Below, one piece after another: positions 40,231-57,421 of a DNA stretch of 57,747 nucleotides. How positions within the stretch are numbered: the stretch's first letter is position 1; every line of letters begins with the position of its first letter. Where the stretch lies: positions 1-57,747 of the forward strand of contig JANRIL010000002.1 of assembly GCA_033764955.1 (NCBI GenBank). Direction: 5' to 3'. Under the pieces are notes generated by a model. That model was not told the origin of the DNA, made no database searches, and saw only the letters and a list, made by a program, of their open reading frames with translations. This DNA comes from Cyanobacteriota bacterium (GTDB lineage: Bacteria > Cyanobacteriota > Cyanobacteriia > Thermostichales > Thermostichaceae). Made by a program: the position numbers and the translations under genes.

Positions 40231-40316
40231 GCATAACAACACAGTGGAGCAGACGGTATTAAGCTCTCCGCCCATTGCCAAAATTATCCACCGCCAGCTC
40301 ACTTCAGCCGTTGTGC
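40231..40316 (+). other. attC site (integron cassette recombination site)
   Basis: R'' GCATAAC, L'' AGTG(G)AGC, L' GCTCACT, R' GTTGTGC; 86 bp. Confidence 0.8.
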
Positions 40317-41698: not shown

Positions 41699-41784
41699 AC
41701 CCAACACTTCACGGCAGCGGACGGTCGAAAGCTACTGGTGCTGAGTTTAAGGTTATCTGCCGCCGCTCCGTTTTGCCGTTATCC
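41699..41784 (+). other. attC site
   Basis: R'' ACCCAAC, ACGG(C)AGCGG(A)CGG pairs with CCGCCGCTCCGT (two extrahelical bases), R' GTTATCC; 86 bp; 8 bp after the stop codon. Confidence 0.85.
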
Positions 41785-54269: not shown

Positions 54270-55184
54270 ATGGTCTTGTCCACCTCCTTTGCCCAACTCC
54301 GACCCGATTTGCTGGTGTCTGCGAGCCATCACCTGGCTTGGCGGGGGTTGGAGGTGATGACCTTTCAGGGGATCCCGAACGAGTCAAGTTTTCCGCCATT
54401 GGATCGTCATCTCCTCTTGCTCCATCAACAGGCTCACCTCACCGTGACCGCAAAATTTGCCGATCAGCAGCAGCAGGGATCCATCACCCCCCTCACCAAT
54501 CTCTCCCTCATCCCAGCCTTTTGTCCCAATCAGTGGGCATGGCCAGAAACGGCGGATTTTCGGGTTTTACACCTCTACCTTCATCCTGATTGGTTAACCC
54601 AGGTCGCGCCACCAGAGATCCCGACCCCCAGCCTAGCTCCCCAGATAGCGATCAGCGACCCACAACTGGAGTATTTGTCCTTGGCGTTGCAGGCTGAAGT
54701 AGAAACGGGCGGGTTAACAGGTTCTTTATTTGTGGAAAGTTTGACGATGGCACTGGCACAGCGGCTGCTCCACCGCTCCGCCCCCCACCCCCCGCAACGC
54801 TTCCCCGGACAGTTATCAACCCAGCAGAGGCAAACCGTTCTGGACTATTTGCATAGCCACCTTGACCAACCCCTGCACCTGGCAGAGATGGCTCGCCTAC
54901 TTGACCTCAGCCCCCACTATTTTGCCCGTCTCTTCAAACAGACGGTTGGGATCCCTCTCCACCAATATGTGATTGCTCTGAGGGTAGACCGAGCTGTACC
55001 CCTGATTCAAGCCGGACAACTTCCCCTCAACCAGATTGCCGCTCGCGTCGGTTTCGCCCACCAAAGCCATATGACCCACCATGTCAAACGTCAACTGGGC
55101 CTCACCCCCAGCCAACTGCGGAACTCCCCACCCTCCAACCGCCCAGCGGCTAGGCAAGATCCTGCTAACCGAGAGCAAGAATAG
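54270..55184 (+). CDS. AraC-family transcriptional regulator
   Basis: LSPHYFARLFKQTVG, IAARVGFAHQSH..GLTP. Confidence 0.93.
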   Translation: MVLSTSFAQLRPDLLVSASHHLAWRGLEVMTFQGIPNESSFPPLDRHLLLLHQQAHLTVTAKFADQQQQGSITPLTNLSLIPAFCPNQWAWPETADFRVLHLYLHPDWLTQVAPPEIPTPSLAPQIAISDPQLEYLSLALQAEVETGGLTGSLFVESLTMALAQRLLHRSAPHPPQRFPGQLSTQQRQTVLDYLHSHLDQPLHLAEMARLLDLSPHYFARLFKQTVGIPLHQYVIALRVDRAVPLIQAGQLPLNQIAARVGFAHQSHMTHHVKRQLGLTPSQLRNSPPSNRPAARQDPANREQE

Positions 55185-55221
55185 GTAAGACACCCTCCCC
55201 CAGATTCTTTAGAATGAGCAG
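55119..55221 (+). repeat. 103-bp direct repeat, copy 1
   Basis: Matches 56333-56435 with 2 mismatches. Confidence 0.95.
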
Positions 55222-55224
55222 GAT

Positions 55225-55305
55225 CGTTGCCCATCACCCACCGCAGAAGCCTTGAATACTCGTCAAATAACCTCTCAACGGTTGGGTGTATGGGCGTTGT
55301 TATGA
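55225..55305 (-). other. attC site ending at a non-canonical G|AT
   Basis: R'' TCATAAC, CCCAT(A)CACCC(A)ACCG pairs with CGGTGGGTGATGGG, then CAAC-G|ATC. Confidence 0.8.
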
Positions 55306-55326
55306 CGCGATCGCTACGCTTCCTAA

Positions 55327-55665
55327 TCAAGCTACTGCAAAACCTGTATGCTGTCGTATTTTAGGATGACGAAAACCTAATACGATATCTTCTTTGGAAA
55401 CACCCGCTGCCATTAAATCCGTCGCTACTCCTTCCTCAGTATCATCGGATTGAACCCAAACCTTATCATCAATCAAGCTGATGTGGATTGGAGCTGCATG
55501 AAGATATTTGTCGCCATGCCAGCCCATATCTAGAACCAGATACTGTCCCCGTTCATCATCGAAAACAGGCTGAGAAATGTAGCCATCAGGTAGCGTAGCA
55601 CGATAATCAGCGTGATTTTGAAGGACGCTCTTAACAATGCCTTGATATTTTAATCGGGTATCCAT
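55327..55665 (-). CDS. xisI: XisI-family protein
   Basis: FDDERGQY..GW..HI..KVWVQSDDTEEG...IVLGF..P..R. Confidence 0.93.
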   Translation of the reverse strand: MDTRLKYQGIVKSVLQNHADYRATLPDGYISQPVFDDERGQYLVLDMGWHGDKYLHAAPIHISLIDDKVWVQSDDTEEGVATDLMAAGVSKEDIVLGFRHPKIRQHTGFAVA

Positions 55666-56069
55666 TGCACAATCGCCTCACTTTCATCATTAAAGACAAT
55701 TAACTTGACCACCTGGTTTTTGAGTAAGACTTGTCCTAATTCTATAGTGAATACACTGTTAAAGGTTGGCTGAGGCACTGCGAGATAAAGGCTGCGCCAA
55801 ATCCTCATTTCATCAAGGATTTGGCGGTACAGGACATATTGCCCCAATGCCTGTTCTAAGTCTTTAACATCTGACGAACCTACAAAGCTTTTCACTTCAA
55901 CCACAATTCTTTGTAATCCCCTCTCAGCACTAATCAACTGCTCTGCACCCAAATCAGCCGACAAACGCTTTTTACCAATCTGAAGCGGGAACGGATCATG
56001 CGTAATCGTCCATCCGTCTTTTTGCAGGGCACGCTTCACAGTGTCGTGGTAAATGTCCTTTGCTGGCAC
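55650..56069 (-). CDS. xisH: XisH-family protein
   Basis: PAKDIYHDTVKRALQKDGWTITHDP, DLGAE, VEVKSF, ALGQY; GTG at 56069. Confidence 0.93.
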   Translation of the reverse strand: MPAKDIYHDTVKRALQKDGWTITHDPFPLQIGKKRLSADLGAEQLISAERGLQRIVVEVKSFVGSSDVKDLEQALGQYVLYRQILDEMRIWRSLYLAVPQPTFNSVFTIELGQVLLKNQVVKLIVFNDESEAIVQWIPD

Positions 56070-56180
56070 GGAAAACCTGAAGTAATCGAACTGTTGCTGC
56101 CAGTATATAGTGATTGCTGTTGCTTTTGATACCAACAGATAAGCTTCAAGTACGTCCCTACCCAAGACCTAGCGGCATAA

Positions 56181-56332
56181 CTTTTCTTAATATGGGCGGA
56201 GTAAATTGGCAATTCCGGATGCACTTTCTTGAAGCGTAGACTTGGGTAGCTTGGGTCTTCCTTAAACTGGCGCTACGCTACGCTGCACGGGTTTGCTCTT
56301 GAACCTGTTTAAGTAAATCAGCGAATAATTTA
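56181..56332 (-). pseudogene. Internal fragment of a RelE/ParE-like toxin
   Basis: KLFADLLKQVQEQTRAA, then QFKEDPSYPSLRFKKVHPELPIYSA; same family as 39948-40207. Confidence 0.7.
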
Positions 56333-56435
56333 CGGAACTCCCCACCCTCCAACCGCCCAGAGGCTAGGCAAGATCCTGCTAACCGAGAGCAAGAATAGGT
56401 AAGACACCCTCCCCCAGATTCTCTAGAATGAGCAG
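56333..56435 (+). repeat. 103-bp direct repeat, copy 2
   Basis: Matches 55119-55221. Confidence 0.95.
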
Positions 56436-56470: not shown

Positions 56471-57421
56471 ATGCCAATATCCGGATGGCGGATCGCTGGA
56501 TTCGTTGGGATGAGTCTGTTTTTTTTGACTCCTGGCTATGCTCAGGAATTGCCCCCTATTTTTGACCAGGTGCCGCCACAACTTCTTCCCGCCACCTCCT
56601 TAGCCCGCCTACCCCAAAACACCTTTTTGGAGAGCATTGTTGCCACCCCAGAGGGCGATCTCTTCATCACCAACCACGAAGCGGGCAAAATTCTCCGCCT
56701 CAACAGCCAGGGATCCCTTTCTATCTGGGCAACCTTAGCAGGCAAAGCCACAGGACTCGTGCGAACCGAGGATCAATCTCTGCTGGTAACGGGAGTGGAT
56801 CCAACCCAAACCCAAATGGTTCTGCGGGTGGATAGTACAGGGCAAGTGACCACCCTTCTGAAAATGCCCGAAGCTCAATTTCTCAACGGTATCACCCACC
56901 TGGCAGGCTCTCGTTATTTAATGGCAGATTCCTACCGAGGAGCGATTTGGTTGTTTGATGCTAGCCAAGCCACAGCCGAGATTTGGCTAGAACACCCGCT
57001 GTTGGCACGCCCCGACAGCAACAACCCCATTCCGGCGGTAAATGGTCTGAAGATTTTTAATAACATCCTCTATGCCTCAAATACCGCTCAACAGCGATTG
57101 CTCAAGATCCCAGTGGGATCCGATGGCAAGGCGGGGGATCCGCAGATTTTCGTGGAGCGGATCAATCTGGATGATTTTGCGTTGGATAGTGACGGTAATC
57201 TCTATGGAGCTACCCACATCTACAACAGTGTAATCAAAGTCACGCCCCAGGGATCCATTACCATTGTGGGGCAACCCACCGTAGGCAGCACCGCCGTTGC
57301 TTTTGGGGAAACCCCCGCCGATTCGCAAAGCTTATATGTGGTTACCAATGGAGGGATGTTTTTGCCGCCCCCGACCGGTGTCGAGGAAGCCCAGGTGATT
57401 CGCCTCCAACTGGATCCCTAA
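56471..57421 (+). CDS. SMP-30/gluconolactonase-like beta-propeller, exported
   Basis: Signal peptide; FLESI, FLNG, ADSY.G.IW, VNGLK, DDFALD. Confidence 0.8.
   Translation: MPISGWRIAGFVGMSLFFLTPGYAQELPPIFDQVPPQLLPATSLARLPQNTFLESIVATPEGDLFITNHEAGKILRLNSQGSLSIWATLAGKATGLVRTEDQSLLVTGVDPTQTQMVLRVDSTGQVTTLLKMPEAQFLNGITHLAGSRYLMADSYRGAIWLFDASQATAEIWLEHPLLARPDSNNPIPAVNGLKIFNNILYASNTAQQRLLKIPVGSDGKAGDPQIFVERINLDDFALDSDGNLYGATHIYNSVIKVTPQGSITIVGQPTVGSTAVAFGETPADSQSLYVVTNGGMFLPPPTGVEEAQVIRLQLDP

Follow-up and report, generated by a model that had tools for sequence, protein, structure and literature searches.

The proteins XisH and XisI have been described from the fdxN element of Nostoc PCC 7120 (PMC4874684, PMC4853749 and PMC3424549, in the available text of each), and relatives are present in the Protein Data Bank (2INB, 2OKF, 3D7Q and 2NVM, the first two being relatives of XisH). 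A xisH-xisI pair (xisHI) of the same families, gene order and overlap was carried by the DNA analysed here, a window of 57,747 nt of contig JANRIL010000002.1 in the draft assembly GCA_033764955.1 of a member of the Cyanobacteriota (genome G000, 3.8 Mb; other genomes and loci are numbered with G and L). In this window neither xisF nor an interrupted gene was nearby, the pair was packaged in what is almost certainly an integron gene cassette lying between two direct copies of a 103-nt host sequence, and the family acts as a scattered selfish module.

Single attC sites without an integron integrase (SALINs), attG sites and long target duplications have each been published already. Like a SALIN or an attG insertion, the locus held a lone single-attC cassette far from an intact integron integrase gene (intI), its GTT and GAT crossovers both fitted GWT, and the integrases of the host were intact. 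A clean attG insertion, however, brings no duplication and no extra DNA, whereas a 103-bp duplication, 151 bp of the toxin gene of another cassette and a microhomology join were found here; the attG hotspot motif CRGM at +6 to +9 was absent, and the two flanking crossovers did not rejoin to one target, as they would after precise attG insertion. Insertions of restriction-modification (R-M) genes with long target duplication, as given in the available text of PMC2853133, share with this locus a small nuclease insert (<20 kb), the lack of a transposase or integrase, and a unique host repeat of >30 bp. The cases listed there include Microcystis and naturally competent species, and the authors tentatively link them to double-strand breaks. 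The present locus differs from them in having no methyltransferase, XisI being the partner in place of an R plus M pair, and in that one end was an attC site. The type II toxin-antitoxin (TA) cassettes of chromosomal integrons resemble it in their small overlapping genes, long leader with a candidate promoter, TA neighbours (Phd/ParE, PIN) and early loss of the toxin; here the putative toxin gene came first, XisI had no known antitoxin fold, and both the toxicity and the binding are putative. The features of the locus were as follows.

54270..55184, plus strand: host gene for an AraC-family regulator, an open reading frame (ORF; PF12833, 75.7 bits, residues 207-285)
55119..55221, plus strand: repeat copy 1, with the 3' end of araC, two GCAAGA boxes and a sigma70-like promoter
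55222..55224, minus strand: three bases at the junction (minus-strand ATC) that follow the crossover G of the attC and are unlike the flank of copy 2
55225..55305, minus strand: attC of the cassette, with R'' box TCATAAC at 55305-55299 and crossover G at 55225
55327..55665, minus strand: xisI, 112 aa, intact (PF08869, 124.8 bits), putative neutraliser of XisH
55650..56069, minus strand: xisH, 139 aa, GTG start, PD-(D/E)XK nuclease fold (PF08814, 176.7 bits), putative toxic partner
56070..56181, minus strand: 5' end of the cassette and 112-nt leader, with core G↓TTATGCC at 56181 (the arrow marks the crossover) and a candidate -10 box TATACT at 56107-56102
56182..56340, minus strand: remaining 5' part of a disrupted gene for a ParE-like toxin (88% to L004, 85% to L005)
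56333..56435, plus strand: repeat copy 2, boxes and promoter kept before the downstream host gene
56471..57421, plus strand: host SMP-30/gluconolactonase-like beta-propeller gene (PF08450, 39.6 bits)

The repeat copies (55119-55221 and 56333-56435) differed at two positions, 55147 (C/A) and 55209 (T/C). They were the sole long repeat family within 45-57.7 kb of the window, and no third copy was found across the 3.8-Mb genome. Between them the 1111-bp insert (55222-56332; G+C content 0.446 vs 0.514 for the window) read on the minus strand as toxin remnant, leader, xisH, xisI and attC. The commonest palindrome of the host, GGGATCCC, was present in 4915 copies and was absent from the insert, which held one GCGATCGC, which we take to be the usual cyanobacterial HIP1 (highly iterated palindrome 1); a foreign origin fits this composition. 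An earlier note on this DNA had reported the mismatched repeat, both genes, the ParE-like remnant and the attC, and each was found where it had been placed.

The attC was assigned by a covariance model for which 14 attC sites elsewhere in this genome, the present one being left out, served as the training set. The model matched 55219-55305 on the expected strand at 32 bits (E 9.5e-6 by a rough calibration). Among 40 related genomes searched, G039 yielded a DNA match of 85% that spanned exactly 56181 to 55225, the predicted ends of the cassette, and that lay behind the complete attC of a TA cassette of Phd/ParE type. An identical cassette start was found in L002, L119, L121 and L158 and an identical end in L002 and L119, with different neighbours each time. 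The last three of these starts were found among the 80 genome loci with the closest XisH: L119 had both attC sites and a canonical G↓TT end, the intact form of the cassette's attC there scoring 54.7 bits; L121 had an attC upstream and a truncated one of its own; L158 had decayed attC sites and PIN TA neighbours. At L158:2378-2400 the upstream attC had collapsed to CATAAC-6 nt-GTTATG, an attI-like palindrome behind a PIN toxin gene. All five of the carrier genomes tested contained intI or fragments of it, three of them above the cut-off. The view of the earlier note that this is a true cassette was thereby upheld by both the model match and the shared ends; it had also held that a lack of attC association of xisHI elsewhere would speak against it, and such linkage was found in four other genomes and in a second lineage.

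The promoter in the leader is a candidate, the TATACT box not having been called by a consensus scan. It agrees with the promoter mapped 33 bp upstream of xisH in Lyngbya in the available text of PMC2674450. The idea of a leader specific to TA cassettes gained no support: there was just one other match (E 0.003), before a PIN-like pair.

On the DNA tree the five clade-A cassette copies and the attC-less L120 formed a starred clade of six rows. A tree that holds the five cassettes strictly monophyletic was rejected (p-AU 0.002, approximately unbiased test), L120 nesting among them, and one capture followed by one loss is the simplest reading of clade A. The L120 copy (L120:2478-3245) has a leader of only ~25 nt and is likely a domesticated former cassette. 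A second xisHI lineage, with XisI only 35-42% identical, was bounded by attC in G085, G089 and G044, and on the XisI tree, which rests on a short alignment, the cassette label must have changed twice or more to fit the starred branches. Judged from these sequences, integrons thus appear to have taken up the pair on at least two occasions in cyanobacteria.

The cassette form is nevertheless rare. No attC was found at the 30 top-scoring xisH loci or at the 30 top xisI loci, and with the best locus taken per genome attC linkage was 2/65 for xisH and 3/61 for xisI. The proposal that xisHI is generally cassette-borne was discarded on counts of 0/30, 0/30, 3/80, 2/35 and 3/31 loci (two of the last three being already in the 2/35); the attC model was trained on one genome and may miss divergent sites, and it scored sites of >40 bits in ten other loci. 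Because the form is rare, cassette carriage says little about the function of xisHI.

Both ends of the cassette bore on the activity of the integron integrase (IntI). At the 5' end the toxin remnant (ORF region 56177-56340, minus strand) was compared with the gene at L004 in G014, which encodes a product matching PF24732 (ParE_like, 50.4 bits). At L004 and L005 alike the toxin gene was followed by an attC, so that this ParE-like toxin is normally found on a TA cassette; the remnant also contained a premature TAG and a 5-bp insertion. Since the intact toxin gene reads AAAAGTTAT at the break, the crossover lay within the GTTAT common to the toxin and the cassette core. Crossing over by IntI at the GTT within the toxin gene is therefore supported, either by insertion or by array deletion of the toxin 3' end, which give the same product. 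The earlier note had the cassette enter a toxin gene at a GTT and the block then move to this locus; the action of IntI at that site stands, and the order of events cannot be told from an array deletion.

At the other end the attC, read on its top strand, terminated in GGCAACG↓ATC, against GGCAACG↓TTAGG in the L119 copy of the cassette. With the R' box now G↓ATC the R-box stem was unpaired; the bottom-strand hairpin formed here without the R stem, which was present in the L119 copy, and re-excision may consequently be poor. The earlier note had treated a G↓AT end as abnormal, which it is not, because the published attG consensus is GWT (Loot et al.) and 3/38 terminal attC sites of this genome end in G↓AT (0/25 array-internal sites). 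Insertion at GWT as well as excision outside the insertion point were described by Loot et al., and GAT cleavage at secondary sites is given in the available text of PMC10127599. The three junction bases at 55222-55224 completed a 9-bp inverted copy (55217-55225) of GATCCTGCT at 55158-55166. A fold-back, or use by IntI of the plus-strand GATCCTGCT site followed by template switching, is a possible origin of the ATC junction. The join between toxin and host had 8 bp of microhomology (56333-56340) between the remnant and repeat copy 2, the donor toxin sequence at this join being taken from the G014 relative. One join thus lay on the IntI crossover base with a fit to GWT, and the other on microhomology.

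The repeated sequence is host DNA, because araC lies directly 5' of a homologous downstream gene, with similar boxes and no insert, in 3/34 distant loci (L097 and L098 being identical). Repeat copy 1 contained the final 22 codons of araC, the stop counted. Its GCAAGA boxes at 55154 and 55175 were spaced by 21 bp, with similar spacing before the homologous genes in L097, L098 and L103; judged by this pattern they are likely AraC sites, and the beta-propeller gene is likely an AraC target. The sigma70-like promoter of copy 1 (-35 at 55187, -10 at 55210-55215) is now directed antisense toward attC and xisI. Under AraC control it (55187-55215, plus strand) would read antisense into both, and the repeat mismatch at 55209 adjoins its -10 box. 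With araC completed by copy 1 and the promoter of the next gene preserved by copy 2, both host genes were intact, and the keeping of the araC stop and of this promoter is likely to have let the insertion survive. A search of plasmids gave only an attC-like match of 78 bp.

The insert held the only xisHI pair of the genome. The two genes overlapped by 16 nt. Both were under purifying selection against three relatives (ratio of nonsynonymous to synonymous substitutions, dN/dS, 0.04-0.06 for xisH and 0.09-0.15 for xisI). As the earlier note had it, XisH is of the PD-(D/E)XK fold; besides the PF08814 match, residues D39, E58, K60, Q77 and Y81 were present and were 90-100% conserved across 80 homologues. 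The predicted fold of XisI (predicted local distance difference test, pLDDT, 95.6) matched only XisI structures (Z 18.3 and 16.6), the next matches being at Z ≤ 5.8. The conserved polar residues of XisI (D36, H61, K68, Q72, T76, E77 and R104) could be a binding or catalytic site, as distinct from a plain antitoxin surface. A predicted XisH-XisI complex scored 0.10 against a mark of 0.32, which counts neither way, and neither protein was matched by the PADLOC or NCBIfam models. Across the same 151 genomes there were 408 matches to XisI in 90 genomes and 318 to XisH in 83, with up to 13 xisH matches per genome.

Loss of the two genes was compared symmetrically on the best locus per genome, in partly overlapping sets of 65 xisH-selected and 61 xisI-selected loci. 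In the former, 63 loci had an intact xisH, each with an intact xisI (63/63), and two had a broken xisH with an intact xisI. In the latter xisH was intact at 38, broken at 13 and absent at seven, three loci at contig ends being dropped. Loss of xisH beside an intact xisI was thus seen at 20/58 loci and loss of xisI beside an intact xisH at 0/63 (Fisher 5e-8, a value that overstates the difference because the sets overlap and kin are not independent). The 82 close loci comprised 72 intact pairs, six with a broken xisH and an intact xisI, three at contig ends and one with a near-complete xisH (match ending at residue 120 of 139) without xisI. Among the other cassette copies xisH was broken and xisI intact in 3/7 (L002, L158 and L284).

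XisH is apparently not kept without XisI, as a toxin is not kept without its antitoxin, which makes the pair TA-like. On the strength of this pattern a TA-like function is probable, with XisH likely a toxic nuclease and XisI likely the protein that restrains it. The earlier note had argued from cassette carriage that a TA or defence role suits xisHI better than an excision role. Given the rarity of that form the argument is weak; the TA part gained from the asymmetry of decay, and the defence part met with no PADLOC match. The 88 ORFs flanking 30 xisHI loci included TA genes at four loci, nuclease or R-M genes at about eight and housekeeping genes at many, counts that are given with no background rate.

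Direct repeats around xisHI were sought in two scans. With 1.5-kb flanks and a direct repeat of ≥30 bp required across the pair, 44 of 167 distinct xisHI loci had direct and two had inverted repeats, against 0/19 and 5/150 in controls. With 650-nt flanks (≥80% identity, repeats ≥30 bp) repeats were found at 11/59 best-per-genome loci (seven two-copy) and at 26/76 close loci (20 two-copy, including kin with one common event); the controls gave 0/30 for thioredoxin (p 0.014) and 4/143 for shifted windows. PIN TA loci gave 1/13, which is not significantly different (Fisher p 0.18). A duplication scar is thus common around xisHI and may not be specific to it among small mobile modules. In one kind of repeat, shared by several genomes (L168, L169, L172, L173, L176, L186 and L246), the upstream gene, which could be an R-M gene, appeared by eye to have its 3' end duplicated, which may point to a recurrent target. 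No flanking repeat was found at any of the 62 other attC sites of this genome (the nine weakest of 71 matches being excluded), and on that count the notion that its stray cassettes generally bear a long duplication was rejected.

The reading to which we incline, by a little, is that an xisHI cassette was stranded between the duplicates of a junction of two host genes, far from a working integrase, XisH being toxic and XisI its antidote. We lean to the same slight degree toward IntI as the maker of the last join at this locus. By this route xisHI, normally a free selfish module, would have acquired an attC at least twice in cyanobacteria, and IntI would have joined the cassette core to a GTT in the toxin gene next to it, either inserting the cassette there or deleting the toxin 3' end within an array. 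Part of this array, in linear form, would then have entered the cell, and a single-strand exchange by IntI would have linked its attC to a G↓AT site of the chromosome; linear single-stranded DNA that enters by transformation is a substrate of IntI, according to the available text of PMC12614218. The other end, being free, would have been caught about 103 bp off by the 8 bp of microhomology, and onward copying would have doubled the sequence that lies between the joins.

A number of observations speak against the stranded-cassette route or against the toxin role assigned to XisH. The flank of copy 2 on the plus strand is AAGC and not GATC, so that a G↓AT target cannot be read straight from the sequence; two substitutions, or a fold-back, would be required. 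Searches of 40 related genomes and of 34 metagenome loci of the downstream gene turned up no empty allele, the nearest homologues of that gene being ≤57% identical and the araC region having one weak match among relatives. From the 0/62 count, IntI half-reactions are no common source of duplication here, and since repeats also bracket attC-less xisHI pairs a cause other than IntI is indicated. As to function, the order with the putative toxin gene first is unusual for TA pairs, no known antitoxin, immunity or DNA-binding fold was found for XisI above Z 5.8 in a fold search that excludes nothing, and the asymmetry of loss could instead reflect a separate use of XisI. The available text of PMC4874684 also reports that fdxN excision in Nostoc PCC 7120 needs xisH as well as xisI.

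The duplication could be a footprint of the xisHI cargo, made at a break by XisH or during repair upon transformation, the G↓ATC end having been inherited from an earlier IntI insertion elsewhere. This would explain the unmatched ATC, and it accords with the excess of repeats at xisHI (11/59 and 26/76, against 0/30 for thioredoxin and 4/143 for shifted windows), with the coincidence of the sole repeat-flanked attC of 63 here with the only xisHI of the genome, and with the precedent of R-M genes (Furuta et al. 2010, PMC2853133, available text). We find it doubtful all the same: without IntI, a join just three bases from the IntI crossover is a coincidence, the PIN TA controls (1/13, p 0.18) do not set xisHI apart, many of the repeats recur in close relatives or are of a dispersed kind (4/11 and 6/26 loci hold them in more than two copies), and none of the seven other cassette-form loci was among those flanked by repeats. 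An assembly artefact is highly improbable as the source of the repeat. The draft genome is in 48 contigs and 89% complete, but the copies differ at two positions inside a 57.7-kb contig, the joins fall on the IntI crossover and on microhomology, and xisHI pairs in many independent assemblies have similar repeats on their flanks.

As for function, the pair could serve in anti-phage defence and be kept by integrons as other defence cassettes are, a view that can stand beside the TA reading. The intact nuclease fold under purifying selection, the two separate integron captures and neighbours that include R-M, Uma2, HNH and HEPN genes suit it; with no PADLOC match, many loci adjoining housekeeping genes and no background rate for defence neighbours, we hold it to be unlikely. 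Still less likely is that XisH and XisI are non-toxic accessory factors of a large serine recombinase in the fdxN style, their capture by integrons being incidental. The requirement of both genes for fdxN excision is reported in the available texts of PMC4874684 and PMC3424549, this genome has one PF07508 recombinase on another contig (C27), and the cassette form is rare. Against this, no serine recombinase was present among the 88 ORFs flanking 30 xisHI loci, up to 13 xisH matches occur in a genome, one-way loss of xisH is unexpected for two co-required helpers, and the pair is present in non-heterocystous strains, where the available text of PMC2674450 leaves its function undisclosed.

The genome at large held parts that could serve the IntI steps of the stranded-cassette reading. 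Two full-length integron integrases scored 463 and 451 bits (cut-off 265), and 71 attC matches (E ≤ 0.05), from 150 scored of 1090 candidates, were spread over many contigs. The attC of the insert stood alone, with the nearest other attC 13 kb off and the nearest intI, a broken one, 54 kb off. G000 is altogether very rich in integron parts, with two intact intI, several fragments and many attC sites. Within the window two attC sites (40231-40316 and 41699-41784; 38 and 69 bits) made up a small integrase-less cluster 13 kb from the insert. A broken integron integrase at the start of the contig (180-860, plus strand; TIGR02249, 253 bits) had two TAG stops and lacked its 5' part. Just behind it, at about 1150-1700 on the minus strand, a small two-gene TA-like pair was noted by eye, which is presumably PemK/MazF-like.

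In the literature covered, which left out most subscription journals and all supplements, no link of XisH or XisI to integron cassettes or to TA function was found. A broader reading, which we put forward only tentatively, is that xisHI is an as yet unrecognised nuclease toxin-immunity pair that spreads among cyanobacterial genomes without an integrase and with long target duplications, that integrons have captured it at least twice, that its fdxN role is a local domestication, and that both routes met at this locus in an IntI crossover and a microhomology repair join. The locus would then be a natural example of a cassette reaching the chromosome by a hybrid, target-duplicating route, one not present in the main text of published attG work. 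XisH and XisI are each present in more than half of the cyanobacterial genomes sampled, often in many copies, and are annotated only as fdxN excision factors; if the TA reading is true, a common family would be re-annotated as a selfish toxin-immunity module.

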